32,000 bases of DNA from Thermococcus kodakarensis KOD1 (GCF_000009965.1 NC_006624.1:390001-422000), one strand, 5' to 3'; counted from the first letter of the stretch, positions 14,458-32,000 are shown. The notes: generated by a model from the letters alone, not told the origin. A program made the numbers and translations.

Positions 14458-14501
14458 GGTTGGGACCCAATTTAGAAATAGAAAATTAGGTGGTGGTAAA
14501 G

Positions 14502-16796: not shown

Positions 16797-16840
16797 CTCG
16801 ACCCAAAACCTTCAACTGAAAAATCTCCGGAGGTCGTGTC

Positions 16841-18061
16841 ATGATACTCCAGGTCGCTCTTGACCTTACCGATATTGAGCAGGCCATTTCTATAGCTGAG
16901 AAGGCCGCCCGCGGCGGGGCCCACTGGCTTGAAGTAGGCACTCCCCTCATCAAGAAAGAAGGAATGAGGGCAGTAGAGCTCATGAAGAGGCGCTTCCCGG
17001 ACAGGAAGATAGTCGCGGATCTCAAGACAATGGACACCGGTGCCCTCGAGGTCGAGATGGCCGCGAGGCACGGCGCTGATGTTGTTTCTATTCTGGGCGT
17101 TGCAGACGACAAGACCATCAAGGATGCAGTTGAGGTCGCGAGGAGGTATGGAATAAGGGTTATGGTTGACCTGATCGGCGTCAAGGACAAGGTTAAGAGG
17201 GCAAAAGAGCTTGAGAAGATGGGCGTCCACTACATCCTCGTCCACACTGGAATTGACGAGCAGGCCCAGGGCAAGAACCCACTTGAGGACCTTGAGAAGG
17301 TCGTAAAGGCCGTCAAAGTTCCGGTTGCAGTCGCTGGGGGCCTGAATCTCGATACGATACCTAAGGTCATAGAGCTCGGCGCCACGATAATCATCGTGGG
17401 AAGCGCCATAACCAAGGCCAAAGACCCTGAAGAAGTCACCAGAAGGATAATAGACCTCTTCTGGGGCGAGTACATGATGACGATAAGAAAGGCCATGTTC
17501 GACATAACGGACCACATAAGGAGCGTCGCCGAAAACCTCAAGCTCGAACAGGTTAGAGGCCTCGTGGATGCCATGATAGGGGCCAACAAGATATTCATCT
17601 ACGGCGCCGGAAGGAGCGGGCTCGTCGGCAAGGCCTTCGCGATGAGGCTCATGCACCTCGACTTCAACGTCTACGTCGTCGGTGAGACAATCACGCCAGC
17701 ATTCGAGGCAGGGGATTTACTCATAGCCATAAGTGGTTCGGGTGAAACAAAGAGCATAGTGGATGCCGCTCAGATAGCAAAGGAGCAGGGCGGAAAGGTC
17801 GTCGGCATAACCTCGTACGCGGACTCGACACTCGGAAAACTCGCTGACGTTGTCGTTGAAATCCCGGGAAGGACAAAGGCAGACGTCCCCACTGACTACA
17901 TAGCCAGGCAGATGCTCACCCAGTACAAATGGATAGCCCCTATGGGAACTCTTTTCGAGGACTCCACTATGGTCTTCCTTGACGGCATTATAGCACTCCT
18001 CATGGCGACCTTCCAGAAGACCGAAAAGGATATGAAGAGGAAGCACGCGACCCTTGAGTGA
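16841..18061 (+). CDS. hps-phi: bifunctional 3-hexulose-6-phosphate synthase / 6-phospho-3-hexuloisomerase (Hps-Phi fusion, RuMP pathway)
   Basis: The N-terminal half resembles the OMP-decarboxylase/Hps family (MILQVALDL...IVADLKTMDTG...LVHTGIDEQ). The C-terminal half is a SIS domain (IYGAGRSG...ISGSGETKS). The fused 406-aa form is the Thermococcales arrangement. Confidence 0.9.
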   Translation: MILQVALDLTDIEQAISIAEKAARGGAHWLEVGTPLIKKEGMRAVELMKRRFPDRKIVADLKTMDTGALEVEMAARHGADVVSILGVADDKTIKDAVEVARRYGIRVMVDLIGVKDKVKRAKELEKMGVHYILVHTGIDEQAQGKNPLEDLEKVVKAVKVPVAVAGGLNLDTIPKVIELGATIIIVGSAITKAKDPEEVTRRIIDLFWGEYMMTIRKAMFDITDHIRSVAENLKLEQVRGLVDAMIGANKIFIYGAGRSGLVGKAFAMRLMHLDFNVYVVGETITPAFEAGDLLIAISGSGETKSIVDAAQIAKEQGGKVVGITSYADSTLGKLADVVVEIPGRTKADVPTDYIARQMLTQYKWIAPMGTLFEDSTMVFLDGIIALLMATFQKTEKDMKRKHATLE

Positions 18062-18069
18062 GGGTCGCG

Positions 18070-18813
18070 ATGTTCTCCTTTACCCATATTTTTGCTGGAA
18101 TTGGTAGCAATGGTTCAAGGATAGTCAATGGAATTGAAACGGACTCCGTGGTAAAGGTATCCTTGAATCCAGCCAGGTACATTCTGCGGCCTAAGGAATA
18201 CCGGGAAAGGATTGTGAACTTCTTCTCTAACGTTCCCGAAAACAGCTTTGTGTGGCTCGTCTTTGATGACACAAAGACAAACAGGGAAATTATGGAGATA
18301 ATCCTTGAAGCACTCCCCTCGGATTCTATAAGGCTCGCTTATGTACTCACGCCTAAAGTTGAGCTGATCAACCAGAAACCCGAATGGGCGGATAAGTTCG
18401 AGACGGTGTTCTACGACTCCCTCTGGGACTTCTTAAAGGAGGACGTGCCCCTTGGAAAGGCTTTTGAGGAAGCTTCAAAGAACATTTCTGATATGTTCTC
18501 AAAGCTCTACCGTTACCTTGAAAGTGAGATGCTCGTGAACATAGACTACGCGGACCTGTTCAGCATGATACGGGGAGGAAACGTCGGCATAATGCGCCTT
18601 CTCCGCGAGGTTGACTTCAGCTGGCACTGGGGCATCTGGGAGCGCGGGCTTGTTGGAATACTTGTCGGTGAAGACTTCCCGCTGAGCGGTGCTCACAGAA
18701 TACTCTCCAAGTTTCAGGAGATACTCTCTGAGAAGGACATAATCTGGGGTGTGATCACCGACAAAAACGTTAAAGGCTCGGAAGTCCTCGCCCTGCTTGT
18801 GAAGAGGTGGTGA
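18070..18813 (+). CDS. short FtsZ/tubulin-fold paralogue with a degenerate nucleotide-binding signature
   Basis: By-eye alignment to archaeal FtsZ runs end to end. [12 protein letters not shown] aligns to [32 protein letters not shown] aligns to [44 protein letters not shown] aligns to [43 protein letters not shown] aligns to IIWGATIDENLENTVRVLLVITG. GTG 18058 is an alternative start. Confidence 0.55.
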   Translation: [247 protein letters not shown]

Positions 18814-18814
18814 T

Positions 18815-19468
18815 ATGGGCAGGATAAAGGCCGTTCTCTTTGACATCGATGGCACACTGCTAACTGAAATGCCCCTTATTCAGCTCTTTCTCCCGCAGGT
18901 GTACGAAAAGCTGGCAAAAAAGCTGGAAACTACCAAGGAAGAGGCCAGGAACGTGTTTCTGTCCGAGATATTCTCAAGGCGAGACACCTACGACTGGCAC
19001 GACTGGAACTTTTTCTTTGAGCTTTTTGGCCTCAATATGCGGTATGAAGACCTTCTGAGGAGGTACCCACACAAGCTCCACGTTTATCCGGACACCATTC
19101 CGACCCTTGAGTGGCTTAAAGGATCTGGATACCCTCTGGGAGTTGTCACGAGCGGGCCCGAATACCAGCGCCTTAAGCTCAAGCTGACTGGGCTCGAAGG
19201 GTACTTCGATGTCATCGTGACCAGGGAGGATGTTAAGGCGATAAAACCCGAGCCAAAGATATTTCTCTACGCCCTTGAAAAACTCGGAGTTGAACCAAAA
19301 GAGGCCGCTTTCGTTGGGGATTCCCTGAGCCAGGACGTTTATGGGGCGAAGCACGTTGGCATGCTCTCAATATGGATAAACCGTGAGGGCGAACCCGGGC
19401 ATCACTTAGCGGACTATGAAATCAGGACGCTCCACGAGCTTAGAAAAATACTGGGGGTGGTAGAATGA
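18815..19468 (+). CDS. HAD-superfamily hydrolase (phosphatase-like)
   Basis: Motif I LFDIDGTL, motif II VVTSG, motif III/IV K...FVGDSLSQD. The ATG lies 1 nt after the upstream stop. Confidence 0.8.
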   Translation: MGRIKAVLFDIDGTLLTEMPLIQLFLPQVYEKLAKKLETTKEEARNVFLSEIFSRRDTYDWHDWNFFFELFGLNMRYEDLLRRYPHKLHVYPDTIPTLEWLKGSGYPLGVVTSGPEYQRLKLKLTGLEGYFDVIVTREDVKAIKPEPKIFLYALEKLGVEPKEAAFVGDSLSQDVYGAKHVGMLSIWINREGEPGHHLADYEIRTLHELRKILGVVE

Positions 19469-19653
19469 AGAAGGTGTTCGAAGGGGAAGGGACGTTTGTT
19501 GAATACGAGGAGAAGAAGGTAAAGCTTGAGAACGGCCACGAGCTGACCCACAGGCGCGAAAACCCGACTGAGCTCTGGTGGAAGTTAAAGGAAGCCATCA
19601 AAGGCAGGAAAGTTAAGATCGTGGCCTACGAGCTGGAGGAGAGCGAAGACTGA
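19465..19653 (+). CDS. small hypothetical protein (62 aa)
   Basis: Overlaps the HAD stop (ATGA) and the next start (TGATG). Charged and non-repetitive. Supported mainly by the translational-coupling geometry. Confidence 0.45.
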   Translation: MKKVFEGEGTFVEYEEKKVKLENGHELTHRRENPTELWWKLKEAIKGRKVKIVAYELEESED

Positions 19654-20465
19654 TGATCGCCCACCTTGTAAACACCGACGTTGGAAGCAGGGGAATAGGA
19701 AGGCTGTATCTTGACTACCGCACCAGAAACTTCCATTTTTTGGAGGACGCCGCTGAGACGTTTCTCAACAACCTTGAGAGAACTCTTATAGTAACCGGCT
19801 TCCCGATTCCGCCTTCTATGACTCCTGAAACCGACGGCCCACCCGGGGCATTGGCAGTCGCAAAAGCCGTAGAAAAGCTCGGGGGAAGGGCGGAAGTCCT
19901 CAGCTATCCGGAGGTAATGGGAGCATTGAGGCCGTTTGGCGTCACTTTTGCAAGGGACGGTGATGTCTCGGAATACTCGCTGGTCGTCGCCATTGAGACT
20001 CCCGGAAGGGCAGTTGACGGCAGGTATTACTCCATGAGCGGCATGGAGATAACGAGGGAGGCCTTTGACGGGCTGGTAATTGAGGCGAGAGAATATGGAA
20101 TCCCAACAATAGCGGTTGGTGACGGCGGAAACGAAGCCGGGATGGGCAACGTCAGGGACCTAATTGAGCTGTACATTCCCCTTGGAGAAAAGATAGCCAG
20201 CGTTGTTGAGGTTGATCACCTTATAACGGCTGGAGTGTCGAACTGGGGTTCCTACGGGCTGGTGGCACATGCCTCGATCTTAGCCGGCACAAATCTCCTT
20301 GCAGACTGGGATGAAGAGAGGGCAGTAAAAGCCCTAACAAGCGCCGGGTTGATAGATGGGGTTAGAAAGAAATCCAGCGAGAGCGTGGACGGGATCGGCC
20401 TCGAAGTCCATAAGGAAGTCGTTGAGCTTTTAAAGGCACTAATTAATGATGCCCTAGGTGGTTGA
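19653..20465 (+). CDS. DUF4392 (D-glutamate cyclase-like) domain protein
   Basis: The TGFPIPP...PETDGPPGA motif and GDGGNEAGMG fit my recollection of DUF4392. 270 aa. The assignment is tentative. Confidence 0.5.
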   Translation: MIAHLVNTDVGSRGIGRLYLDYRTRNFHFLEDAAETFLNNLERTLIVTGFPIPPSMTPETDGPPGALAVAKAVEKLGGRAEVLSYPEVMGALRPFGVTFARDGDVSEYSLVVAIETPGRAVDGRYYSMSGMEITREAFDGLVIEAREYGIPTIAVGDGGNEAGMGNVRDLIELYIPLGEKIASVVEVDHLITAGVSNWGSYGLVAHASILAGTNLLADWDEERAVKALTSAGLIDGVRKKSSESVDGIGLEVHKEVVELLKALINDALGG

Positions 20466-21086
20466 ATGAAGCTTGAGGAGTTCATATCTGACCCGAAGTC
20501 AAGGGAGCTGATAGAGACCGTCAGGGAGTTCGCCAAAAGCTTCTTCGACAGGGAGGGCACGCACGGCTTCAGCCACGTTGAGAGGGTCTTCAACCTCTGC
20601 ATGCATATCGGGAAAGAAGAGGGGGCTGATTTAGAAGTCCTCGCCCTGGCGGCGCTTCTCCACGATATTGCCCGCCCGCTGGAGGATTCAGGGAAAGTCG
20701 AGGACCATGCCCTTGAGGGGGCAAGGATAGCGAGGAGGTACCTGAGGAGCCTCGGTTATCCCGAAGACAAGGTTGAAGCCGTTGCCCACGCGATAGAGGC
20801 CCACCGCTTCTCACGTGGGCCTGAACCGGCAACACTTGAGGCAAAGATCCTGAGCGATGCCGATAAGCTCGACGCAATAGGGGCCGTGGGGATAGCGAGG
20901 GTCTTCATGTACTCGGGGGAGCATGGGAGGGGCATAGACGCCTCAATAAAGCACTTTGAGGAGAAGATACTGAAGCTGAAAGACCTGATGTACACAGAAA
21001 CCGCGAGAAAGATGGCCGAAGAGAGACACCGCTTTACCGAGGAGTTTATTGAGCGGCTCAGGCGTGAGATAGAGGGTGAAATCTGA
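20466..21086 (+). CDS. HD-domain metal-dependent phosphohydrolase
   Basis: HGFSHVERV ... LLHDIARP ... DADKLDAIG is the classic H...HD...D pattern. The start abuts the upstream stop. Confidence 0.8.
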   Translation: MKLEEFISDPKSRELIETVREFAKSFFDREGTHGFSHVERVFNLCMHIGKEEGADLEVLALAALLHDIARPLEDSGKVEDHALEGARIARRYLRSLGYPEDKVEAVAHAIEAHRFSRGPEPATLEAKILSDADKLDAIGAVGIARVFMYSGEHGRGIDASIKHFEEKILKLKDLMYTETARKMAEERHRFTEEFIERLRREIEGEI

Positions 21087-21181
21087 CCTTTTGGAGGAGA
21101 GCTTTTCTCCATAATAACCTTTTTAAATGCCTTCCTGAATTATGGGGTAGTCTGCTCAGGGTCATTCTGGGGGGTGAGAAC

Positions 21182-21694
21182 GTGAAGGCGCCGATCTGTG
21201 AGGTGTGCTTGAAGACGGATGGTATTCTCTGTCCCGCCGATGAGAAAAAACTCCAGGAGGGTATAATCTCCGAGCTTGACGTTAAGGTCGCGAGGCTTCT
21301 CTACAAGCTTCTCGGTGACGCTGATATCGAGTTCAAGAATGCCGTCGAAGCTGGAGATCTCGTTGTCATCGTCGTTGGGGAAGGAGACGTGCCCGTGGTC
21401 ATAGGTAAGGGTGGAAAGAACATCAAAGCCCTGATAAGGGAGCTTGGAAAGCGCGTTAGGGTTATCGAGGGTATGAAAGCGGAAAACCCGAACGAGCTGA
21501 AGAAGCTGGCCTCTGACCTGTTCTATCCTGCTGGAGTCTTTGGCGTTAACGTGGTCTACAAGGCCGGAGGAGAGAGGGACTACAAGATCCTCGTCTTTGG
21601 AAGGGACAGAAAGAAGCTCCCTGAGAAGCCAGAAGTTCTTGAGAGCATTCTCAGCCAGATAACCGGCAAAGACGTTAGGATATCCTTTGTTTGA
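21182..21694 (+). CDS. KH-domain RNA-binding protein, archaeal NusA-like
   Basis: GXXG KH motif VIGKGGKNIKALIRELG. N-terminal Cys pair CEVC...C. GTG start preceded by GGGGGGTGA. Confidence 0.6.
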   Translation: MKAPICEVCLKTDGILCPADEKKLQEGIISELDVKVARLLYKLLGDADIEFKNAVEAGDLVVIVVGEGDVPVVIGKGGKNIKALIRELGKRVRVIEGMKAENPNELKKLASDLFYPAGVFGVNVVYKAGGERDYKILVFGRDRKKLPEKPEVLESILSQITGKDVRISFV

Positions 21695-21831
21695 TGCTCT
21701 TTTCTGTTCTCATCCTGTTTTTGGCACTTTGCTTTTGAGTTTCTTCCCTCGATGTGAGACGATTCTGGTGGCATTATCCCGCATCACATAGCGACTTCTA
21801 CTTTTGTTTCCAACTTTAAGTTTACGAAATT

Positions 21832-21840
21832 CTTTTAAAG
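21832..21840 (+). promoter_or_regulatory. TATA-box candidate for the toxin-like gene
   Basis: CGAAATTCTTTTAAAGC lies 44 nt upstream of ATG 21884. The SD GGAGGTGA is at 21872-21879. It lies in a 189-nt spacer after an oligo-T (21718-21722) that ends the previous gene. Confidence 0.4.
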
Positions 21841-21883
21841 CTGGATTATTCGTCCATAGTTGAAACCATCTGGAGGTGAGCGG

Positions 21884-23299
21884 ATGAGCCGCCAGATGGT
21901 TGGAGCGCTGGTTCTCCTGCTCTTGCTGACGCTGCCCGGAGTCTCCGCCGTTTCCCTGCCGTGGTCAGGGCTTTCCATCTTTGGAGCAAGCTCAGGGGCC
22001 TACCCAATCCGCCTCGACGGCGTTGAACAGACCGGCAACATCGCGGTCGTAACATGGGACGTCCCGCCCAACTGCCTCTCCGGCTACGGCACCGTGTTCA
22101 TCAGCAGGGATGGAAGAACCATCACAGAGCGCGTCAGCCTCGGCCGGCTGAAGCCCTGGGGCAAGAAGGTAGCGGTTTTCCTCAACGTCAGGGAGCCGGT
22201 TTACGTCAAACTGCGCATCACCTCTGGAAACGGAATCTTCATGAGCTCGTGGGTGAAGTTGAGGCCCCAATCCGTACCGAGAGTCTTCTCGACAGGCTAT
22301 ACGACCACTTATTCCTGGGGAGACGGGGAGATAAGGCCGCAGTTCGTCCCAATTCCAGCCATCATCGGGGCAATAATCTCGGTGGGCTTTGCGCTCTGGG
22401 ACGCCTACGATGCCTATAATGCGTGTTCCGACTACGGGGAGGACTCAATAAAGTGCACCGTCGCCGCTGGTTCGGTGTTCGTTTTCAGCCTGGCTATGGA
22501 GGGCGATGAGCTGGTCGGCGTGCTCAGGCACGGTGATGAACTCGTTGAGGTTCCTGGAAAGCTATACAGCACGCTGAAGCGCCTCGACCTCGTTGAGGAG
22601 GTTGGTGATGGAGTCGTCAGGGCCAAGGAGAGGTTCGCCCACATATTCGACGACATAGTAAAGCACGGCGACGATGCCGCAAAGGCCCTCGACGACCTCG
22701 TCAGGGCTGGAGTTTCAAAGGAGGCCGTCGAGGAGACAGTCAAGCACGGCGCGACGATAAAGGAGATAAAGGAAGGAATTGAACGGTCGGAGAGGGCATT
22801 AGAAAGGATAGCAGGTGGAGCGGAAGGAAAACATGTCCTCGGAAAAGTACGGACGTACGACGTGGCCATAGAGAAAGGGAACGAAAAGGAGGGGCTCATT
22901 CACATGCTCCTCAGGCACGTGTGGGGATACGACATGGAAAACGTGGGAAAAACATCCTTCTGGCCGATGGGCCAGAAGATCATCGTGAGCGGTCAGGAGA
23001 AGCAGCTTCCCAGGGTTTTCAGGGATGAGGGGGAGCTGATGGAGTTCCTGAAGGAAGTTGTGGAGAGGGTGAGCAAGGATCCAGAGTACATATCTGAGAA
23101 ATTCTTTAAGAATGGGGTGCCCAACAGGAACTTTGGGATTCCAGTGGATCTTAAGAAGCTTGGAATGCGTGTTGATGGGATTGATGTTGTTCAGCTGGAG
23201 TTTAGGTTCGAGAAGGGTGAATTCGTCCTGAAGACGGCGTATCCTGTTGATGGTTGGGCTGTTGAGACGTTTATTCCTGGTAAGGGTGGCTGGCAGTGA
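21884..23299 (+). CDS. full-length polymorphic-toxin candidate: signal peptide, beta-rich ectodomain, two hydrophobic segments, helical linker, 115-aa swappable C-terminal module (CT1)
   Basis: 471 aa. Signal peptide is MSRQMVGALVLLLLLTLPGVSA. Hydrophobic segments are VPIPAIIGAIISVGFALWDAY (22346-22408) and CTVAAGSVFVFSLAM (22454-22498). Residues 357-471 (nt 22952-23296) recur downstream as start-less copies. Confidence 0.6.
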   Translation: MSRQMVGALVLLLLLTLPGVSAVSLPWSGLSIFGASSGAYPIRLDGVEQTGNIAVVTWDVPPNCLSGYGTVFISRDGRTITERVSLGRLKPWGKKVAVFLNVREPVYVKLRITSGNGIFMSSWVKLRPQSVPRVFSTGYTTTYSWGDGEIRPQFVPIPAIIGAIISVGFALWDAYDAYNACSDYGEDSIKCTVAAGSVFVFSLAMEGDELVGVLRHGDELVEVPGKLYSTLKRLDLVEEVGDGVVRAKERFAHIFDDIVKHGDDAAKALDDLVRAGVSKEAVEETVKHGATIKEIKEGIERSERALERIAGGAEGKHVLGKVRTYDVAIEKGNEKEGLIHMLLRHVWGYDMENVGKTSFWPMGQKIIVSGQEKQLPRVFRDEGELMEFLKEVVERVSKDPEYISEKFFKNGVPNRNFGIPVDLKKLGMRVDGIDVVQLEFRFEKGEFVLKTAYPVDGWAVETFIPGKGGWQ

Positions 23300-23822
23300 G
23301 GTGATACGAATGTGGGCCACCATACAAGGAAAACACTTGACGATAAAAATAGACCTAGATAGGTACATTCCATCTCCAGATCCTTTCTTTTCGATTTTTA
23401 CGATAGGTGACCATTTACTCGTGGGGGCCTGCTGGAAGGGAAAACTCGAAGGAGATGAAAGTGATGTCTACAGAGTTTTTGAGAACTTGTTGACTGCTTG
23501 TTATTACTTTTTACAGCCAGAGCATCCGCACGTTCAGAAACTAACCAGGTTTGAGAAAAAGAATGTGGAAGAGGCAGGATTCAGATTAAAAGGGGAGGAG
23601 GTTGTTGTGTATCAGGGTGTTGAGAGGAACAGTATTTACTACGCTTGCTCTACAGGGAAGACCGCGAGAATTTACTATCACAATGGACTCCTTGAATTCA
23701 CTGATTGTCCAGAATACAAGGGCAAGCACAAGGGTGTCGTTGAGCTCCCGCTTAGAGAGTTCATTGAAGACGTTCTGAAAGTCAGCAAGGAGTACTTGGA
23801 AAAATACGCTCCAATTATTGAG
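22952..23822 (+). repeat. cassette repeat copy A (CT1 plus most of immunity-like 1)
   Basis: Colinear without indels with 24868-25738 (constant offset 1916 nt). Roughly nine positions in ten are identical by eye, not computed. It includes a ~50-nt perfect run, CCCAGGGTTTTCAGGGATGAGGGGGAGCTGATGGAGTTCCTGAAGGAAGT. Confidence 0.8.
23171..23315 (+). repeat. 145-nt perfect direct repeat, copy 1 (3' end of CT1, junction, first codons of the immunity gene)
   Basis: Identical base for base to 26529-26673 on my reading. The flanking similarity extends over 23157-23365 versus 26515-26723 with 5 mismatches. Confidence 0.8.
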
Positions 23823-23921
23823 AAAATCAGGCTGGAGCATGGGGAAAAGCCTGACGACTATGACTTCCTCCAAAAGTTCTATCTGGAAGTTGAGAGACTG
23901 TATAAGGAGAAGTTTGGGTAA
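23310..23921 (+). CDS. immunity-like protein 1 (203 aa), cognate position to CT1
   Basis: The ATG lies 10 nt after the toxin stop, within TGAGGTGATACGAATG (SD spanning the stop). Family motifs are GKHLTIKIDL, VGACWKGK, DCPEYKGKHKGVVELPLREFIEDVLKVSKEYLEKY. The track ORF's first 21 codons are a spurious extension. Confidence 0.6.
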   Translation: MWATIQGKHLTIKIDLDRYIPSPDPFFSIFTIGDHLLVGACWKGKLEGDESDVYRVFENLLTACYYFLQPEHPHVQKLTRFEKKNVEEAGFRLKGEEVVVYQGVERNSIYYACSTGKTARIYYHNGLLEFTDCPEYKGKHKGVVELPLREFIEDVLKVSKEYLEKYAPIIEKIRLEHGEKPDDYDFLQKFYLEVERLYKEKFG

Positions 23922-24258
23922 GAGGATCATCGTGAACGGTCAGGAGAAGCGGTTGCCAAAAGTCTTCAAGAACGAGAAAGAGCCCAGAGAGTTCCTTGAT
24001 GAAGTGTTGAAGAGGGCACTTCAGGAGGAAGAGTACTACACAGAATTTAGGGGACAGAGCTTTGTGAAGCTAAGGGTAAACTTGGATAAGCTTGGGGTGC
24101 ATATAGACGGGATAGATGCGGTAGAGTTCCAGTTCTCGTATAACCAAGCTAAGGGTGCCTATCAACTTATCACAGCGTATCCCTCAAAGGGTAAGAATGT
24201 TTTAGGGTACGTGTGGGACAGAGAAAAACAATCTGGTAAATGGATACGCATGGGGTGA
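23917..24258 (+). pseudogene. orphan toxin C-terminal cassette CT2 (113 codons, no own start or promoter), divergent variant
   Basis: GKRIIVNGQEKRLPKVFKNEKEPREFLDEVLKRA...GIDAVEFQFSYNQAKGAYQLITAYP is colinear with residues ~363-455 of the full-length gene. The tail is different. Homology begins exactly at the stop codon of the preceding gene, and there is no in-frame Met until the last residues. Confidence 0.6.
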
Positions 24259-24263
24259 CTTCA

Positions 24264-24860
24264 ATGAGGTGCAAACTTCGTGGAAAATTTATTGAGGTTG
24301 AAATAGATTTGGAATCCTTTGAGCCAGACCCATTTCCCGGCCGTTTTCCTATTCTTTTTTTGGTGGCTGGGCACGAAGTAGGTGGATACCACAATGAGGG
24401 ATGGCTTGGCGACTCATATGGCCTCTTTCAGGATCTACTCCTCTGTACGAGAGATCTCCTAAAGTGCCCTGAAAGTTGTTTTAACAAAAGGAAAAACGCT
24501 GAGAGCGATGGTTTTAAGTTGTTACCTGATAGCTATGTCTGCGGACCAATACTTGACTTAGATTTTAACACGTATTATCTTGAAAGAAAGGGAGAATTGT
24601 TGCGTTTTCATTTCATAAATGAAGCTCCCAAGTATATTTCTTCGAAGAATTCCCTTCAGGGCACTATCGAACTACCGTTTGGGGCCTTTGTCGCCGATAT
24701 TCTCAAAATAAGCGAGGAGTACCTTGAAAAATGTTTCCCAATAGAAATGGAGACTAAAGCCATGCAATATAACAGATTTACCGAGGAAATTTCTCGGCTT
24801 AGGCAATACTTAGAAAACCTCATACAGGAAATTAAAACAGAACTGGATTTTGGGCATTAA
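24264..24860 (+). CDS. immunity-like protein 2 (198 aa), divergent family member paired with CT2
   Basis: The ATG lies 5 nt after the CT2 stop. MRCKLRGKFIEVEIDL..., YGLFQDLLLC, GTIELPFGAFVADILKISEEYLEKC share the family architecture. AT-rich, about 35% GC in a spot count of 24541-24600. Confidence 0.55.
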   Translation: MRCKLRGKFIEVEIDLESFEPDPFPGRFPILFLVAGHEVGGYHNEGWLGDSYGLFQDLLLCTRDLLKCPESCFNKRKNAESDGFKLLPDSYVCGPILDLDFNTYYLERKGELLRFHFINEAPKYISSKNSLQGTIELPFGAFVADILKISEEYLEKCFPIEMETKAMQYNRFTEEISRLRQYLENLIQEIKTELDFGH

Positions 24861-24861
24861 T

Positions 24862-25215
24862 TGGGAAACATCCTTCTGGCTGATGGGCCAGAAGATCATC
24901 GTGAACGGTCAGGAGAAGCAGTTGCCCAGGGTTTTCAGGGATGAGGGGGAGCTGATGGAGTTCCTGAAGGAAGTCGTGGAAAGAGCTCTCAAGGACCCAG
25001 ATTATCAAAAAGAATTCTTTAATAGACTTGGAGCACCGAAATCAAGCTTTGGGATTCCAGTGGATCTTAAGAAGCTTGGAATGCGTGTTGATGGGGTTGA
25101 TGTTGTTAGGTTGGAGTTCAGGTTCGAGGATGGGAAGTTTGTCCTGGAGACGGCGTATCCTGTTGATGGTTGGGCTGTTGAGACGTTTATTCCTGGGAGA
25201 GGTGGCTGGCAGTGA
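24862..25215 (+). pseudogene. orphan toxin C-terminal cassette CT3 (start-less), about 80% identical to CT1
   Basis: WETSFWLMGQKIIVNGQEKQLPRVFRDEGELMEFLKEVVERALKDPDYQKEFFNRLGAPKSSFGIPVDLKKLGMRVDGVDVVRLEFRFEDGKFVLETAYPVDGWAVETFIPGRGGWQ. In-frame homology to 22952 onward starts at 24868, right after the stop of the preceding gene. The track 'M' is a TTG. Confidence 0.6.
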
Positions 25216-25738
25216 GGTGATACGAATGTGGATCACCATACAAGGAAAACACTTGACGATAAAAATAGACCTAGATAGGTACATTCCATCTCCAGATCCT
25301 TTCTTTTCGATTTTTACGATAGATGACCACATACTCGTGGGAGCCTGCTGGAAGGGAAAACTCGAAGGAGATGAAAGTGATGTCTACAGAGTTTTTGAGA
25401 ACTTGTTAGATGCGTGTTCTTGTCTTTTAGACCCGGAGCATCCGCATGTTCGGGCACTAACCAGGTTTGAGAGAAAGAATGCAGAAGAGGCAGGATTCCG
25501 GTTAAAAGGGGATGAGGTTGTGGTGTATCGGGGGGTTGAGAGGAACAGTATTTACTATGCTTGCTCTACCGGACGGATTGCGAGAATTTATTATCACAAT
25601 GAGCTCCTTGAATTCACAGATTGCCCAGAATACAAGGGCAAGCATAAGGGCGTTGTTGAGCTTTCACTTAAGGAGTTCGTTGAGGACGTTCTGAAAATCA
25701 GCAGGGAATACTTGGAAAAATACGCTTCGATTATTGAT
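24868..25738 (+). repeat. cassette repeat copy B (CT3 plus most of immunity-like 3)
   Basis: Partner of 22952-23822; see that entry. Confidence 0.8.
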
Positions 25739-25876
25739 AGGATTTTGATCGAGAATGAACACAATCCCGGTGATGACTATGAATACCTTTTGAACTTTTA
25801 TCAGGAGGTTAAGAAAATGTACGAGAAACCCAGTTGCGGGAGCTCTAGCTTAAGCAAAAAAGAACATTGGGCGTGA
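25226..25876 (+). CDS. immunity-like protein 3 (216 aa), close paralogue of protein 1
   Basis: It has the same TGAGGTGATACGAATG junction. It is roughly 80% identical to immunity-like 1 by eye, with a different C-terminal tail. The first 66 codons of the track ORF 25028.. are out-of-frame read-through of CT3. Confidence 0.6.
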   Translation: MWITIQGKHLTIKIDLDRYIPSPDPFFSIFTIDDHILVGACWKGKLEGDESDVYRVFENLLDACSCLLDPEHPHVRALTRFERKNAEEAGFRLKGDEVVVYRGVERNSIYYACSTGRIARIYYHNELLEFTDCPEYKGKHKGVVELSLKEFVEDVLKISREYLEKYASIIDRILIENEHNPGDDYEYLLNFYQEVKKMYEKPSCGSSSLSKKEHWA

Positions 25877-25880
25877 TCCC

Positions 25881-26501
25881 ATGAACACGCTCAAATTATC
25901 TGGCAAGCACATCTACATAGAGGCTGACTTAGGGAAATTCTATGGGGGAGCATATCCCTTTCCCCTCATCATGTTACTGGATGACCATGTCATCGTGGGC
26001 ATGTGCTGGAAAAAATGGAGTTCAGGGAAGCTGGTTGGGTCGCCAGGGGACCCATATGGAGTTGTGCAGGATTTACTGGACAGTGTGAGGTTCTTTATGG
26101 TGGCGAAGCCAAGACGGCTCGTTGGTGTTAAGCCGGACACTGTTAGAGAGTACGGATTTCAGGTTGGGGAGGACTCTTCGATTTACTCTGCAACATCGGT
26201 AGCGGACTCAGTCTTCATTTTTCTTGAAAGAAAGAATGATGTAGTGAAAATACATTACTATAACCAGCTTCTCTACGAAACAGATTGCCCGGAATTCAAG
26301 GGAATGGGCAGGGGTACAATTGAATTGCCTTTCTTGGAATTTGTTAATGATGTGCTCGAGATTTCGGAGGGATACCTCAAAAACTATGCAGGTGTCATAG
26401 AACGGATTATGAGAGAGTATGAGGAGGAACCGTATGACCATGATATCCTCTGGAGATGGTATCTGGAAATCAAGGAGGAAATTACAGGCAGGAGGATATG
26501 A
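25881..26501 (+). CDS. immunity-like protein 4 (206 aa), stand-alone divergent member
   Basis: Starts 4 nt after the previous stop with no CT module in front. MNTLKLSGKHIYIEADL, VGMCWKKW, YGVVQDLLDS, DCPEFKGMGRGTIELPFLEFVNDVLEISEGYLKNY. Confidence 0.55.
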   Translation: MNTLKLSGKHIYIEADLGKFYGGAYPFPLIMLLDDHVIVGMCWKKWSSGKLVGSPGDPYGVVQDLLDSVRFFMVAKPRRLVGVKPDTVREYGFQVGEDSSIYSATSVADSVFIFLERKNDVVKIHYYNQLLYETDCPEFKGMGRGTIELPFLEFVNDVLEISEGYLKNYAGVIERIMREYEEEPYDHDILWRWYLEIKEEITGRRI

Positions 26502-26516
26502 ATACATTGTCACTAG

Positions 26517-26657
26517 CTTGGAATACACGTTGATGGGATTGATGTTGTTCAGCTGGAGTTTAGGTTCGAGAAGGGTGAATTCGTCCTGAAGACGGCGTAT
26601 CCTGTTGATGGTTGGGCTGTTGAGACGTTTATTCCTGGTAAGGGTGGCTGGCAGTGA
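26517..26657 (+). pseudogene. truncated toxin C-terminal stump (last 46 codons of CT1)
   Basis: LGIHVDGIDVVQLEFRFEKGEFVLKTAYPVDGWAVETFIPGKGGWQ is preceded by an in-frame TAG at 26514-26516. Positions 26529-26673 are identical to 23171-23315. Confidence 0.75.
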
Positions 26658-26673
26658 GGTGATACGAATGTGG
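26529..26673 (+). repeat. 145-nt perfect direct repeat, copy 2
   Basis: Partner of 23171-23315, offset 3358 nt. Confidence 0.8.
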
Positions 26674-27276
26674 ATCACCATACAAGGAAAACACTTGACG
26701 ATAAAAATAGACCTAGATAGGTATATTCCCTCTCCTTATCCATTTTTTCTGATCTTTGGGATAAAAGATAACCTGATTGTAGGAGCCTGTTGGAAGGGTA
26801 AGCTTGAAGGAGCAGAAACAAACGTTTATGGGGTTCTCCAAGAGCTCCTTATAGCGTGCATTCAGATGCTTAACCCAAAGAGTAGCACTTCAAATTTTGC
26901 CAGAAAGGAAGCGAAGTGGCATGGGTTTGTTCTTAACGAGAACAATCCGTCTTATGAGCTCATTACGTCATCAAATCCATCTAGCATTCTTTACTTTGAA
27001 GCAGATGGGAATATCCTAAAAGTTTACTATTATAATGATCTGCTTGCATATACCAACTGTCGTGAATATGAGAACAGACATAGGGGTGTCGTTGAACTCC
27101 CGCTTAGAGAGTTCGTGGAGGATGTTCTGAAAATCAGCAGAGAGTACTTAGAAAAGTACGCTTCGATTATTGAGAAAATCAGGCTGGAGCATGGGGAAGA
27201 ACCTGACGACTACGATTCCCTCAGGGGGCTCTATCGCGAGGTTGAAAGGTTGTATAGAGAGTCAGGATTCCGCTGA
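26668..27276 (+). CDS. immunity-like protein 5 (202 aa), mosaic member
   Basis: The first ~19 codons are near-identical to proteins 1 and 3. The central ~120 codons diverge. The last ~60 codons are again about 88% identical at nt level to protein 1 (23733-23870 versus 27085-27222, 17 mismatches counted by eye). Confidence 0.6.
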   Translation: MWITIQGKHLTIKIDLDRYIPSPYPFFLIFGIKDNLIVGACWKGKLEGAETNVYGVLQELLIACIQMLNPKSSTSNFARKEAKWHGFVLNENNPSYELITSSNPSSILYFEADGNILKVYYYNDLLAYTNCREYENRHRGVVELPLREFVEDVLKISREYLEKYASIIEKIRLEHGEEPDDYDSLRGLYREVERLYRESGFR

Positions 27277-27326
27277 GGAGCTCTGGGGGTGATTCTGTGA
27301 GCTGGTGGCTCGGAAGTTTAAAGCCC

Positions 27327-27935
27327 ATGAGGCTCGTTGGGAAGCACATAGAAATTGACGTGGACCCCAACGCCCCCACGTGCTTTCCATCTCCTATCCC
27401 GACCCTGATGAGAATTGACAGAAGGCTGATCATCGGCGGAATATTCAAATCCTCGGGATGCACTCCCTTGATGATGGATACAAACCTCCACGGCATGTTC
27501 CAGGACCTTCTCGACCTCTGCATCTCCTTTCTCGACCCCGACTTCGACGAGCAGGGGGAGATGGCGTATCCCAGAAGGGAGGCAAGAAAGTTGGGCTTTA
27601 AAATAGGGGACAGCACAAAGCTCTACCAGACGAGCCTCTTTGTGGACCAAGGGGTTACCACCGTGTTTTTTGAGCTCGTCGGGGAAAGGCTGAGGATTCA
27701 CTACCTCAACGAGCTTCTCGGATGGAGCGACTGCGAGGATGCCAGGAAAACACACAGGGGGACATTCGAGGTTCCCTTTTTGGAGTTCGCGGAGGACGTT
27801 TTAGTGCTCTCTAGGAGGTTCCTAACGGAGGTAGCACCCATTATTGAGGAGGTCTGTCCCGAGCTTGACGATCCCGAGTACCTGTGGAAGCTGTACCTTG
27901 AACTGAACGCAAGGTTGGTGGGGGAGGATGATTAA
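27327..27935 (+). CDS. immunity-like protein 6 (202 aa), GC-rich divergent member
   Basis: MRLVGKHIEIDVD, HGMFQDLLDLC, LGFKIGD, DCEDARKTHRGTFEVPFLEFAEDVLVLSRRFL share the family layout. About 58% GC in a spot count of 27481-27540. The track start 27297 (GTG) is less likely than ATG 27327. Confidence 0.55.
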   Translation: MRLVGKHIEIDVDPNAPTCFPSPIPTLMRIDRRLIIGGIFKSSGCTPLMMDTNLHGMFQDLLDLCISFLDPDFDEQGEMAYPRREARKLGFKIGDSTKLYQTSLFVDQGVTTVFFELVGERLRIHYLNELLGWSDCEDARKTHRGTFEVPFLEFAEDVLVLSRRFLTEVAPIIEEVCPELDDPEYLWKLYLELNARLVGEDD

Positions 27936-29181
27936 GTGGGCGAAAACCTACTGGAAGGGCGGAGTGGCATCTATCTCCCTCACACGGGGCGGAGACATGA
28001 TTGCTGCGGGGGTGGCGGAAAAGGAGCTGCATTTCTTGGCAGAATATGGCCCACGCAGGGTAATCCTCAGTGGGGGCTTCGTGGCAAGGCTCGGGAGAGA
28101 TGGAAGCCTCAAGTGGTTTAGAATCATCCCGAAGGTGACCATAACCGATGCTGAAGTTACTGGTAACGGGGAAGTGGTATTGGTGGGGGTAACGAGGGAA
28201 CCCCGCTCCATGATGCTGGGGGTGATCCTCAAATTCGATGGTAATGGAAACTTCCTGTGGGGCAGGAGGTTTAACGGAGGTGTGCTTGATAGCTTCAATG
28301 CCCTCACGACGACAAGAGACGGTGGAACTGTAGTTGTCGGCGAAACAAGAAGCTTCGGCGCGGGGGTCAGCGACGCCCTGGTCCTAAGGCTCGACGGAGA
28401 TGGAAACTTTGTCTGGTGGGGAACCTACGGCGGCAAGCTGTGGGACGGGGCAGAGTCCGTAGCTATCGACAGAGAAGGGAGGATAGTGGTTGCGGGCTAC
28501 ACATACAGCTTCAGTGAAGGCCCATCGAACGCGTGGCTCCTCTGGCTCGATAACGAGGGTGATGTTCTTCTGGGGAAGACGTACGGAACGGAGAGCCTGG
28601 AAAAGGCCGTTAAAATCGCGCTGACTCCTGAGGGTGACCCCGTGGTGGTCGGGAAAACCTACGTTCCAATAAAGTCCCGCCACGATGCCTGGGCCATCCG
28701 CCTGGACGGCGAGGGGGAACCTGAGTGGGGGCTGAGATTTCCTGGGATGGAAGCCGTCGACATTGCGGTAAGCCCCAGCGGTGATCTGGTTGTCGCCATG
28801 GAAGATTTTGAGCTGGCCGGAATTGGCTCCACAGGAGAACCCTTGTGGGGAGAAAGGCTAAAGCTGAAAATGGACGGTGGACTGAGAACAGTTTTGGCGG
28901 ATGAACACGTTCTCGTGGGAGGTGGAGCTCTCTGGGGAATCGGAGAAGCGTTCATCGCATCAATTCAGCCCGAAGGGGAACCTCCTGCTGTCCTTGACTG
29001 GAATCCTGAGGTGAAAGAAAGCGAGTGCACGGTTTTCAGGGCGTACGCTAACGGCGAGGCCTGCTTTAAGGCCACTCCCGTCGGAAGGTTCACCGAAGTG
29101 AGGCTAAAACCCGTGGAGTTCAAGCCAGATGTATTCAGCAGCTTCGAGGAGTTCGCAGAAAGCAGTTACGTTCGTCGTTGA
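27928..29181 (+). CDS. cytoplasmic 7-blade beta-propeller repeat protein with a ~70-aa C-terminal domain
   Basis: About seven 45-50-aa repeats with the pattern W..(T)YGG...D.a.sva...dG.ivvaG.T.Sf....dawll.lD..G...W. No signal peptide. The ATG overlaps the stop of immunity-like 6 by 8 nt (ATGATTAA). Confidence 0.65.
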   Translation: MIKWAKTYWKGGVASISLTRGGDMIAAGVAEKELHFLAEYGPRRVILSGGFVARLGRDGSLKWFRIIPKVTITDAEVTGNGEVVLVGVTREPRSMMLGVILKFDGNGNFLWGRRFNGGVLDSFNALTTTRDGGTVVVGETRSFGAGVSDALVLRLDGDGNFVWWGTYGGKLWDGAESVAIDREGRIVVAGYTYSFSEGPSNAWLLWLDNEGDVLLGKTYGTESLEKAVKIALTPEGDPVVVGKTYVPIKSRHDAWAIRLDGEGEPEWGLRFPGMEAVDIAVSPSGDLVVAMEDFELAGIGSTGEPLWGERLKLKMDGGLRTVLADEHVLVGGGALWGIGEAFIASIQPEGEPPAVLDWNPEVKESECTVFRAYANGEACFKATPVGRFTEVRLKPVEFKPDVFSSFEEFAESSYVRR

Positions 29182-29215
29182 AATGTCTGCGTTTCCATAT
29201 TCCCTCACGAATACC

Positions 29216-29222
29216 TTTAAAA
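29216..29222 (+). promoter_or_regulatory. TATA-box candidate for aspS
   Basis: CCTTTAAAAGG lies 31 nt upstream of ATG 29253, implying a very short leader. Confidence 0.4.
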
Positions 29223-29252
29223 GGTGCCCGCGACTCTTTCTGGGGGGTTGCC

Positions 29253-30569
29253 ATGTACAGGACGCACTACTCAAGCGAAATTACGGAGGAGTTGAACGGC
29301 CAGAAGGTTAAAGTCGCTGGCTGGGTCTGGGAAGTCAAAGACCTCGGCGGCATAAAGTTTCTCTGGATACGGGACAGGGATGGAATCGTCCAGATAACCG
29401 CTCCTAAGAAGAAGGTCGACCCGGAACTCTTCAAGCTCATTCCAAAGCTCAGGAGCGAGGATGTGGTTGCAGTTGAGGGAGTAGTTAACTTCACTCCAAA
29501 GGCCAAGCTGGGTTTCGAGATTCTGCCCGAGAAGATCGTTGTGCTGAACAGGGCCGAAACGCCTCTTCCGCTCGACCCGACAGGTAAGGTCAAGGCTGAG
29601 CTCGACACCAGGCTTGACAACCGCTTCATGGACTTAAGAAGGCCCGAGGTCATGGCCATATTCAAGATACGCTCAAGCGTCTTCAAAGCTGTGAGGGACT
29701 TCTTCCACGAGAACGGCTTCATTGAGATTCACACGCCCAAGATAATCGCTACCGCCACCGAGGGTGGGACGGAGCTCTTCCCGATGAAGTACTTCGAGGA
29801 GGACGCTTTCCTCGCTCAGAGTCCCCAGCTCTACAAGCAGATAATGATGGCCAGCGGTCTCGACAGGGTCTACGAGATAGCGCCGATATTCAGGGCAGAG
29901 GAGCACAACACAACGCGCCACTTAAACGAAGCATGGAGCATTGACAGCGAGATGGCCTTCATAGAGGACGAGGAGGAAGTCATGAGCTTCCTTGAGAGGC
30001 TTGTCGCCCACGCAATAAACTACGTCCGCGAGCACAACGCCAAGGAGCTCGATATACTCAACTTTGAACTTGAGGAACCCAAACTTCCCTTCCCGCGCGT
30101 GAGCTACGATAAGGCCCTTGAAATCCTCGGGGACCTTGGAAAGGAGATTCCCTGGGGAGAGGACATAGACACTGAAGGGGAGAGGCTTCTCGGAAAGTAC
30201 ATGATGGAGAACGAGAACGCTCCGCTCTACTTCCTCTACCAGTACCCGAGCGAAGCAAAGCCGTTCTATATAATGAAGTATGATAACAAGCCCGAGATAT
30301 GCAGAGCCTTCGACCTCGAGTACAGAGGAGTTGAGATAAGCTCCGGCGGCCAGAGGGAGCACAGGCACGACATCCTTGTTGAGCAGATCAAGGAGAAGGG
30401 CCTCAACCCAGAAAGCTTTGAATTCTACCTTAAGGCCTTCCGCTACGGCATGCCGCCCCACGGTGGCTTTGGACTCGGCGCCGAGAGGCTGATAAAACAG
30501 ATGCTCGACCTTCCGAACATCAGGGAGGTCATCCTGTTCCCGAGGGACAGGAGGAGGCTGACACCGTAA
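29253..30569 (+). CDS. aspS: aspartyl-tRNA synthetase, archaeal type (class IIb)
   Basis: 438 aa from MYRTHYSSEITEELNGQKVKVAGWVWEVKDLGGIKFLWIRDRDG (OB anticodon-binding domain). Class II motif 2 is FRAEEHNTTRHLNEAW and motif 3 is GGFGLGAERL. The track ORF's first 25 codons are an upstream extension. Confidence 0.95.
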   Translation: MYRTHYSSEITEELNGQKVKVAGWVWEVKDLGGIKFLWIRDRDGIVQITAPKKKVDPELFKLIPKLRSEDVVAVEGVVNFTPKAKLGFEILPEKIVVLNRAETPLPLDPTGKVKAELDTRLDNRFMDLRRPEVMAIFKIRSSVFKAVRDFFHENGFIEIHTPKIIATATEGGTELFPMKYFEEDAFLAQSPQLYKQIMMASGLDRVYEIAPIFRAEEHNTTRHLNEAWSIDSEMAFIEDEEEVMSFLERLVAHAINYVREHNAKELDILNFELEEPKLPFPRVSYDKALEILGDLGKEIPWGEDIDTEGERLLGKYMMENENAPLYFLYQYPSEAKPFYIMKYDNKPEICRAFDLEYRGVEISSGGQREHRHDILVEQIKEKGLNPESFEFYLKAFRYGMPPHGGFGLGAERLIKQMLDLPNIREVILFPRDRRRLTP

Positions 30570-30632
30570 GGCCTTTATACTTTTCACCATTTAAACTGAT
30601 AGCCAGCAACATAAACCTGCGGAGGTTGGAAA

Positions 30633-32000
30633 ATGAGGAAACTCCTGGCTTTAATTTTGGGGATTGTTTTAATGGTTTCAGGTGGAATTACGTCTAATAA
30701 GGGCATTGTCCGCGCTGAAGAAACTAATTATGCAACCGTTGGGCCGTCCGTTCAGCTTAATCTAGGAGATTCTGTAACCCTTGGTGAGTACACTATCAAG
30801 TTCTCGGACATCAGCGTTGATTATAGCCAGGTTTCTCTGACGATTCAGGGGCCGACAGGGGCACCTTCAACTATAATAGTTCCCGAGGGCTCTAACGCGT
30901 ACTATCCCAACAGCAAGAACCCCAAGCTAGTATTTGGAGCGGCTGTATGGACCAAAGACAAAAAGCCGCTCCTGTACCTTGACATAAAGTCCCCACTCAA
31001 AAAGGTAAACGGCGACCCGTTGATACTTTCCGCAGGAAAGAGCTACACCCTCCCAGTGGGTACAATAAAAGTCTATAAAGTCACTTCCACAGAGGTAACT
31101 TTCACGATTTACCTCCCGAACAATCCATCTAAGAGCATCACCCTCAAGGAAGGTGAAAGTGGGGGAGTTGCCTACGCATTCCCGAACACGGACTTCAAGT
31201 ACTACGACTTCGTCTATGTTGAGCTCCTTGACATTACACCTGGAAAATCAGCGAAGTTCAACGTCTACATGCCGGCAGTTCCCGCTACAAAGATATCAGT
31301 GAGCCGCGCGGGGGGCTCGAGCTCAAGCTCGGGCTCGGGAACATCAACAACCCAAACCCTCATATCCCTGTACGATGGTCTCCTCTACACGAACGAAAAG
31401 CTGACCATCACCCAGAACAAGACCAAGTACGAGCTACAGCTCGTTTCGGCCGTCTCCACGAAGGCCAGTATAAAGGTCTACAAGGACGGCAAGGCACTAG
31501 ACACTTACATAATCAGCATAGGTGCCATTAAGGACATCCCAAACACTCCCCTGAAAGTTTTGATATCGAAATCTGAACCGCAGTATGGAAGGGTGTCCCT
31601 AACGGTATATGGCCCGGAGGACGCAAAGGCGACGCCGATTCTTAGGCCGGCAACCATAGTGGCCTCGATAGACACCGTTCCAAAGACCGTCATGGTTGGA
31701 CAGGACATGGTTATCATAGTAACGGTCGAGAACAAAGGCAAAGGCGATGCCTACGATGTTAACGTCGCAGCCCCAGTTCCGAACGGCTTCAAACTCGTTA
31801 GCTCAGTCAAGAGCTGGACGTTTAAGAGCTTTCCTGCATTCACAAAGATGCCCGCTTTAATATACGTTCTCCAGCCCACAAAGGTCGGAAAGTTCGATAT
31901 TGGAAGGGTGATGGTAACCTACTACGATGATCAGAGCCTTGAAACTGGCAAGCAGAAGACCATATACTCCCAGCCCCTCAGCGGCATCATCGTGTACGGA
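30633..32000 (+). CDS. secreted S-layer-like / CARDB(DUF11)-repeat surface protein, 5' part; open to the right edge
   Basis: ATG 30633 follows GGAGGTTGG. Signal-like MRKLLALILGIVLMVSGG. Ser/Gly/Thr linker GGSSSSSGSGTSTTQT. CARDB-like VGQDMVIIVTVENKGKGDAYDVNVAAPVPNGF. It is in frame for 456 codons to position 32000, and is absent from the track because it has no stop. Confidence 0.65.
   Translation, partial: MRKLLALILGIVLMVSGGITSNKGIVRAEETNYATVGPSVQLNLGDSVTLGEYTIKFSDISVDYSQVSLTIQGPTGAPSTIIVPEGSNAYYPNSKNPKLVFGAAVWTKDKKPLLYLDIKSPLKKVNGDPLILSAGKSYTLPVGTIKVYKVTSTEVTFTIYLPNNPSKSITLKEGESGGVAYAFPNTDFKYYDFVYVELLDITPGKSAKFNVYMPAVPATKISVSRAGGSSSSSGSGTSTTQTLISLYDGLLYTNEKLTITQNKTKYELQLVSAVSTKASIKVYKDGKALDTYIISIGAIKDIPNTPLKVLISKSEPQYGRVSLTVYGPEDAKATPILRPATIVASIDTVPKTVMVGQDMVIIVTVENKGKGDAYDVNVAAPVPNGFKLVSSVKSWTFKSFPAFTKMPALIYVLQPTKVGKFDIGRVMVTYYDDQSLETGKQKTIYSQPLSGIIVYG

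Follow-up and report, generated by a model that had tools for sequence, protein, structure and literature searches.

The closest described relatives of the locus analysed here are the orphan Rhs and CdiA-CT/immunity modules of bacteria (Poole et al. 2011, PMC3150448; Koskiniemi et al. 2014, PMC3967940) and VARTIG, a hypervariable Ig-domain module of the Thermococcales that has explicitly been likened to polymorphic toxin systems (Makarova et al. 2021, PMC8416519). Archaeal polymorphic toxin systems have been predicted from genomes, without experimental testing, and Thermococcus kodakarensis KOD1 is among the commonly used model organisms of the Thermococcales (PMC8416519). Here, genes TK0482-TK0490 of KOD1 are examined within a stretch of 32,000 nucleotides (nt), referred to as the window (GCF_000009965.1 NC_006624.1:390001-422000). 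As in the bacterial modules, a main gene with a conserved body and a variable C-terminus has an immunity-like gene directly downstream, followed by fragments that lack start codons and export signals and are each accompanied by an immunity-like gene of their own. By analogy, the locus is an archaeal counterpart of the Rhs/contact-dependent inhibition (CDI) orphan-locus layout, and the repeat described below is ordinary behaviour for such loci. Taken together, it is considered probable that TK0482-TK0490 form a polymorphic effector/immunity-like array and that a perfect 145-nt repeat within it is a recent intrachromosomal gene-conversion tract, formed between the tail of TK0482 and a stump of 46 codons, itself old, that precedes TK0489. 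Among the literature searched, TK0482-TK0489 are not named in the main text of any paper.

The array consists of a main gene, six immunity-like genes, two orphan C-terminal fragments and one unannotated 46-codon stump, a layout that supports the toxin C-terminus/immunity anatomy first proposed from the DNA alone (hereafter the sequence-only reading). Its parts are listed below in window coordinates; adding 390000 gives the genome coordinate, for example 411884-413299 for TK0482 and 413310-413921 for TK0483 in the tables of PMC4247193.

21884-23299, plus strand: TK0482, main toxin-like gene, 471 amino acids (aa), characterised by homologues, alignment, structure model and hydropathy
22952-23296, plus strand: CT1, the polymorphic C-terminal region of TK0482 (positions 2-114 of the C-terminal (CT) hidden Markov model (HMM); switch from conserved to variable in the alignment)
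23171-23315, plus strand: 145-nt perfect repeat, proximal copy (exact repeat search)
23310-23921, plus strand: TK0483, immunity-like 1 (Imm1), 203 aa, N-terminal type W, centre type 1, with an AlphaFold2 model
23914-24258, plus strand: TK0484, orphan C-terminal fragment CT2, without the N-terminal 350 aa
24264-24860, plus strand: TK0485, immunity-like 2 (Imm2), partner of the CT2 type
24865-25215, plus strand: TK0486, orphan C-terminal fragment CT3, of the same type as CT1 (CT HMM)
25226-25876, plus strand: TK0487, immunity-like 3 (Imm3), type W, centre 1, with a distinct C-terminal tail
25881-26501, plus strand: TK0488, immunity-like 4 (Imm4), with no toxin fragment before it in KOD1
26517-26657, plus strand: unannotated 46-codon stump of a toxin C-terminus (CT HMM positions 69-114), absent from the RefSeq gene list
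26529-26673, plus strand: 145-nt perfect repeat, distal copy (exact repeat search)
26668-27276, plus strand: TK0489, immunity-like 5 (Imm5), type W, centre type 3/11
27297-27935, plus strand: TK0490, immunity-like 6 (Imm6), the conserved last array member in syntenic genomes

A partner gene (~205 aa, cytoplasmic product) lies 10 nt after each C-terminal variant, behind a GGTGAT ribosome-binding site. Downstream of TK0482 the C-terminal fragments are promoterless and start-less and have their own partners, and further partners stand without a fragment. CT1 begins at the conserved junction T-S-F-W-P-M-G-Q-K-I, and the 46-codon stump begins at the conserved L-G-x-H-V-D-G-I point, directly behind the in-frame TAG (26514-26516) that the sequence-only reading had placed before the distal repeat copy.

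The perfect repeat is reproduced by exact search: 23171-23315 equals 26529-26673 as a maximal exact match of 145 nt at an offset of 3358, and over the wider similarity that had been proposed (23157-23365, 209 nt) there are five mismatches (23167, 23169, 23170, 23316 and 23317). The repeat holds, as described earlier, the last 42 codons of TK0482 (23171-23296), TGA, GGTGATACGA, ATG and TGG. Downstream of it, the partners were said to diverge over a central ~120 codons and to reconverge at the end; the pattern stands, as Imm1 and Imm5 agree at 42/50 positions of the N-terminal part and 51/66 of the C-terminal part against 26/77 in the centre, but the divergent centre covers only about 85 aligned columns. 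Compared with the proximal 145 nt, the third copy of the window, in CT3, has 12 differences and the orthologue in the sister strain Thermococcus sp. JCM 11816 has five. In a comparison over 112 nt, the counts are two for KOD1 CT1 and the stump, 12 for CT3 and five for the JCM 11816 orthologue. Given the ~3% divergence of the orthologue, zero differences in 145 nt have a Poisson probability of ~0.01, and on these comparisons the identity exceeds chance.

The sequence-only reading had allowed for gene conversion or duplication. The contrast between zero differences within KOD1 and five to the orthologue favours recent conversion, while a fresh duplicate of CT1 is at odds with the presence of a stump in the sister strain at the VDGI point. 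A recent segmental duplication, by which the CT1 tail and the start of Imm1 were copied in front of an older immunity gene without conversion of any stump, would nevertheless suit the perfect identity, its abrupt ends, its passage across the intergenic junction and the N-terminal type that Imm5 shares with Imm1. It is considered unlikely, since in JCM 11816 the same Imm4 flank is likewise followed by a stump, which starts at the same L-G-x-H-V-D-G-I point, and the first ~24 nt of the stump, together with the Imm4 flank, are orthologous between the two strains. Furthermore, ETF-type stumps with W/centre-3 immunity modules are also present in two other loci (L011 and L015), which makes the module old, and the same identity between main gene and stump has arisen independently in the metagenomic locus L011. 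There, the main CT tail and a 37-codon stump before an Imm5-type gene share a 74-nt exact run, although the segment differs from that of KOD1 at 23-32 of 112 nt; as a second case at the sequence level, this supports conversion.

Within GTTGATGGGAT, at about 26540, KOD1 and JCM 11816 cease to be homologous; they become so again from ~27021, a point inside the conserved final third of the partner gene. The segment 26541-27020 is non-homologous to the corresponding JCM 11816 position, so the module made up of tip, partner N-terminus and partner centre differs between the strains. Under the gene-conversion reading, the KOD1 version would have been made identical to the TK0482 tail after this strain-specific module arose, or the reverse: conversion is possible in either direction because JCM 11816 CT1 agrees with KOD1 CT3 at four sites, against both KOD1 CT1 and the stump.

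Identity could also be maintained by selection on the sequence itself, whether as a regulatory or structured RNA, a promoter or an extremely constrained peptide. In keeping with this, the next 48 nt (23318-23365) are identical across all three KOD1 copies, and 5' ends have been recorded at +53 of TK0483, TK0485 and TK0487 by differential RNA sequencing (dRNA-seq) of the T. kodakarensis primary transcriptome (raw reads; PMC4247193 Table S7). This explanation is regarded as highly improbable, as 12 of the 145 nt are changed in CT3 despite its nearly identical peptide and five in the JCM 11816 orthologue, and a corresponding 5' end is not reported for TK0489. We infer that conversion rather than selection keeps the two copies identical. 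Separately, an RNA-level explanation of the repeat was dropped, there being no Rfam match and a fold z-score of +0.69, no better than for shuffled sequences.

Recombination across the 145-nt repeat had been predicted to delete 3358 bp and to place Imm5 behind CT1. Simulation gives exactly this product, with TK0482 unchanged and TK0489 directly behind it, so that such an event would alter only the neighbour of the toxin and not the toxin itself. According to the sequence-only reading, the proposal would fall if Imm5 were not expressed or folded. Against this, TK0489 is an intact open reading frame (ORF) with the same GGTGAT ribosome-binding site, shows weak transcription (42-95 raw reads; PMC4247193 Table S7) and is under purifying selection, its ratio of non-synonymous to synonymous substitution rates (dN/dS) being 0.13. 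A natural deletion is seen not for the 145-nt repeat but for a longer direct repeat that the sequence-only reading had not described, with copies of ~900 nt at an offset of 1916 and about 85-96% identity.

22950-23850, plus strand: long direct repeat, copy 1 (CT1 + Imm1), from a repeat finder
24866-25766, plus strand: long direct repeat, copy 2 (CT3 + Imm3), from a repeat finder; called copy 3 below

Apart from a missing 1916 bp, the alignment of JCM 11816 with the window runs at about 97%, with window 12496-23902 corresponding to positions 1-11499 of its locus (L010) and window 27021-32000 to 12740-17799. At the 188 informative sites, where KOD1 copies 1 and 3 differ, JCM 11816 is copy-1-like at 119/127 up to 23792, with three short copy-3-like patches, and copy-3-like at 61/61 from 23811 onward; left of the switch it matches copy 1 at 96.5%, and right of it copy 3 at 99.2%. 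The alignment carries the signature of the loss of exactly one 1916-bp unit through a single crossover inside Imm1/Imm3, and the product in JCM 11816 is a main toxin followed by a chimeric Imm1/Imm3 partner. The dS (synonymous divergence) between copies 1 and 3 is 0.47, which makes them far older than the strain split and the KOD1 state ancestral and places the deletion in JCM 11816.

The arrangement is not peculiar to these two strains. HMM scans of 20 loci (KOD1 and 19 further) reveal a common array grammar, in which a main gene and its partner are followed by C-terminal fragments with partners and then by partners alone. The fragments repeatedly begin at HMM positions 1-8 or 78-86, that is, at the FWPMGQKI and VDGID blocks. 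Orphan cassettes in KOD1 are represented by TK0484, TK0486 and the stump at 26517-26657, and the CT2/Imm2 pair, an orphan in KOD1, occupies the main position in Thermococcus sp. JdF3, where the main tip is of the CT2 type; similarly, the Imm4 type, fragment-less in KOD1, follows a full CT in T. eurythermalis (L007_13545). In the proposed mechanism, the conserved blocks FWPMGQKI, VDGID and GxCW and the last ~60 partner codons would serve as crossover points, and the variable blocks between them would move as cassettes. The toxin tip and the first ~45 codons of the partner would make up one such cassette, the 145-nt repeat would be its boundary region, and repeats would act as substrates for deletion.

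The syntenic locus of JdF3 also contains a 635-aa gene call (L006 12288-14195) that spans the space occupied in other genomes by the immunity-like and propeller genes and includes an immunity-like HMM match at L006 12312-12911, which suggests a fusion of the two genes at the sequence level.

The partner proteins have about 40 relatives, all in the Thermococcales, and would act as immunity proteins. The AlphaFold2 model of Imm1 (predicted local distance difference test (pLDDT) score 95.5) has two beta4-alpha units and long C-terminal helices and weakly resembles PUR-alpha tandem repeats (Foldseek E 1e-3, template-modelling score (TM) 0.3-0.4); no curated immunity family or fold was matched in Pfam, NCBIfam or PADLOC. 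The partner genes are under purifying selection, with dN/dS of 0.10-0.24 (0.12 for Imm6), and the orphan CTs have values of 0.23-0.33, CT2 scoring 0.23 against the main CT of JdF3.

Every C-terminal variant has a small gene directly behind it, and the type of this gene changes with that of the variant. Among 32 non-redundant CT/partner pairs, the toxin tip tracks the N-terminal type of the partner, ETF tips going with W/W' (11/11) and WEY tips with Y (5/5), and CT2 is paired with the Imm2 type in 4/4 contexts. The sequence-only reading had raised the possibility that specificity resides in the variable centre of the partner. This finds no backing in the pairs, in which N-terminal and centre types assort combinatorially (W/1, W/5, W/11, Y/1 and Y/5), while the tip follows the N-terminal type. 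One core-A toxin is paired with a centre-2 partner, and the Imm5-type centre is found only behind short stumps, never behind a full C-terminus (3/3 contexts).

At 23247-23309 and 26605-26667, the frame of the partner genes contains no stop codon over the 21 codons before the start and so runs back into the toxin tail (MMVGLLRRLFLVRVAGSEVIR-MW...). Database entries for the relatives P0033 and P0036 include this extension, which is probably an annotation artefact of overlapping frames.

TK0482 itself has 14 close homologues, all from Thermococcus or Pyrococcus, and an exhaustive HMM scan of 1.84 billion representative proteins returned only 28 matches to its family; scanning genome contigs with the toxin profile yielded one locus. 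In alignments, the N-terminal ~350 aa are conserved and the last ~115 are variable after T-x-F-W-P-M-G-Q-K-I. The protein has a 22-aa Sec-type signal peptide, an FN3/Ig-like ectodomain, one transmembrane helix and a helical region, followed by the conserved GLIH340-x4-H345, an instance of the invariant G-L-x-H-x3-R-H with which the constant part closes; in the hydropathy profile a single helix (153-172) passes the transmembrane threshold. By Foldseek, the modelled ectodomain weakly resembles FN3/Ig folds, archaeal pilin and FlaF, and the model is unreliable over residues 130-213. Distant members that retain only the C-terminal module come from Methanothermococcus, where a periplasmic-binding-protein domain is fused to it (a sequence feature that suggests extracellular display), and from Methanocaldococcus, T. 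thioreducens and metagenomes.

Across these members, G-L-x-H-x3-R-H-x2-G, F-x-P and (Y/F)-P are invariant, and in 16 diverse members H20, R24, H25, P41 and P134 are invariant (H20/H25 being H340/H345 of TK0482, and P134 belonging to Y453-P454). Mushegian et al. (2020, PMC7297114) give as the hallmark of the RNase A/EndoU-like superfamily two N-proximal histidines, spaced by 5-6 residues, combined with an aromatic-Pro pair on a C-terminal strand; in their HHpred comparison, CdiA-CT(Ykris) and EndoU were matched by a toxin from Thermococcus whose signal peptide is 22 aa long. H340/H345 and Y453-P454 of TK0482 fit this hallmark. EndoU_bacteria (PF14436) gives sub-threshold Pfam matches in 2/16 members (E 8.6e-4 to 6.5e-3) and is the sole family matched by more than one of the 16, and UniRef names the T. 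thioreducens homologue an EndoU-domain protein; TK0482 itself has no Pfam match. Widening the C-terminal profile in homology searches brought in only further Thermococcus fragments and no annotated EndoU proteins. The architecture, the conserved H-x4-H ... Y-P pattern and the weak EndoU matches offer a lead that the TK0482 C-terminus may be an RNase A/EndoU-like toxin. If this lead is right, the histidine pair sits in the constant part of the protein, and the cassettes replace only the C-terminal two-thirds or the last quarter of the domain.

Several points weigh against the picture of an effector/immunity array reshaped by recombination. The single transmembrane helix is predicted to put the C-terminal 300 aa of TK0482 in the cytoplasm of the producer, unlike in classical secreted polymorphic toxins, and no delivery machinery or secretion apparatus is evident for TK0482. 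No toxin or immunity family for the array proteins rose above noise in Pfam, NCBIfam or PADLOC, profile searches of the C-terminal module and the partner family against PDB sequences returned nothing relevant, and the top 50 Foldseek matches of the TK0482 model all fall on the N-terminal FN3-like domain. The C-terminal variants all align to one HMM and have one fold, rather than alternating between unrelated toxin folds. With regard to pairing, plain linkage could possibly account for the association between toxin tip and partner N-terminus, because the Mantel r for CT tail against Imm N-terminus (0.71) barely exceeds that for Imm N-terminus against Imm centre (0.68) over the 32 pairs. Finally, the JCM 11816 assembly is a draft with many homopolymer frameshifts, and its deletion could still conceivably be an assembly chimera, a reading made less likely by the shortness of the identity between copies 1 and 3 at the switch (~18 nt).

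Some of these points would be accommodated if TK0482 were not an inter-cellular toxin but a type I membrane receptor, with an FN3 ectodomain and a polymorphic tail that binds polymorphic cytoplasmic partners; such a protein could function in self/non-self recognition, in signalling or in an abortive-infection-type module. The one predicted transmembrane helix would place the tail inside the cell beside the partners, neither a secretion apparatus nor a known toxin/immunity family was found, the partner fold is only weakly like tandem PUR/Whirly-like repeats, and VARTIG provides a precedent for other hypervariable surface modules in the Thermococcales, of unknown role (PMC8416519). A receptor is nonetheless held to be unlikely. 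The invariant H-x4-H and Y-P, the sub-threshold EndoU matches and the published link between Thermococcus and CdiA-CT(Ykris) point to an RNase; orphan fragments, fragment-less partners and pairs that are orphan in one genome and main in another are toxin/immunity hallmarks; and the Methanothermococcus fusion to a periplasmic-binding-protein domain suggests extracellular display.

Returning to the effector/immunity reading, a more specific and distinctly doubtful version can be formulated. What is exchanged would be less than a whole toxin domain: the last quarter or up to the C-terminal two-thirds of an RNase-like domain, joined to the N-terminal ~45 residues of the inhibitor and kept in register by gene conversion between the expressed gene and silent stumps, with the nuclease side cytoplasmic and delivery by membrane exchange. 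If the nuclease side of TK0482 does face the cytoplasm, delivery would need such exchange, through vesicles, nanotubes or fusion, and the system would then be an archaeal analogue of outer-membrane-exchange toxins and not of secreted ones.

Transcription of the array is uneven. TK0482 has a primary transcription start site (TSS) at genome position 411862, with 158-1571 reads, and the orphan fragments are near-silent, with 12-29 reads for TK0484 and 4-28 for TK0486 (PMC4247193). By far the most transcribed gene of the array is TK0485 (Imm2), with 1029-3914 raw reads, though it is the partner of the near-silent CT2 (PMC4247193). The dRNA-seq 5' ends classed as 'internal' are at window positions 23363, 24317, 24541 and 25279 (genome 413363, 414317, 414541 and 415279), with ends exactly 53 nt after the start codons of the paralogous TK0483, TK0485 and TK0487 and none reported for TK0488-TK0490. 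Upstream of them is an A-rich ATAAAAATAGA at about -20 to -12, with no canonical B recognition element (BRE)/TATA at -26, and short reads cannot separate TK0483 from TK0487 at these ends. An antisense TSS lies inside TK0488 (Imm4) on the minus strand, at window position 26353 (genome 416353).

Two further genes follow the array.

Downstream of TK0490: TK0491, beta-propeller
Downstream of TK0491: TK0492, AspRS

In all syntenic genomes (L001, L002, L008 and L010), the array closes with a conserved pair, Imm6 and the beta-propeller protein (TK0490 and TK0491, together 27297-29181); their genes overlap by 8 nt, and a toxin fragment is never found in front of Imm6 in these genomes. At the start of the window, CRISPR-associated genes on the minus strand encode Cas6 (1576-2613) and a Cas_CXXC_CXXC protein (135-1607). 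Between these and the array lie a gene for a 1084-aa protein (4861-8115), whose sole Pfam match is an L-type lectin beta-barrel domain below the gathering score, and a reverse gyrase of 1711 aa (9056-14191) interrupted by an intein with a LAGLIDADG domain. These large upstream ORFs were considered as VARTIG and rejected, being the reverse gyrase with its intein and the lectin-domain protein.

The main value of the locus lies in the combination of a genetically tractable archaeon with a natural deletion variant that carries a chimeric Imm1/Imm3, and in a last cassette that differs between the strains. Deletions and swaps could address RNase activity of the C-terminal module, the region of the partner that protects and the way in which a membrane-anchored effector might reach another cell.

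In comparison with VARTIG, the locus is likewise specific to the Thermococcales and likewise has a lead protein with an Ig/FN3-like ectodomain, a recombining C-terminal region and variable downstream genes. VARTIG proteins are large and multi-Ig with no candidate toxin, and their recombination is reported between genomes and not within a locus, whereas the TK0482 locus has a candidate nuclease motif, paired partners and clear intra-locus repeats. With the RNase A-like/EndoU-like domains (CdiA-CT Ykris, PF18431; EndoU_bacteria, PF14436), TK0482 shares His-x4-His in an N-proximal helix, a C-terminal strand with an aromatic-Pro pair and the location of the module at the C-terminus of a Thermococcus signal-peptide protein, and distant members of its family give weak EndoU_bacteria matches. 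It differs in that TK0482 lacks a Pfam match and the module lacks a sequence or fold match in the PDB, and membership is a lead.

The likeness to the Rhs and CdiA-CT modules extends from layout to behaviour: through the homology of main and orphan copies, recombination can remove the DNA between them and alter the expressed variant, and a natural deletion of one unit is found in the sister strain of KOD1. The KOD1 system differs from them in its archaeal host, with no type V or type VI secretion system, and in a main protein that is a small (471 aa) single-pass membrane protein whose C-terminal variants all have one fold. Furthermore, its swap junctions (FWPMGQKI and VDGID) lie inside the putative nuclease domain, after the invariant histidine pair, so that a partial domain is swapped, and a crossover at the 145-nt repeat would change only the neighbour and not the toxin. 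Two features would thus set the locus apart among systems of this layout, namely swap junctions within the putative nuclease domain and the predicted cytoplasm-facing topology.

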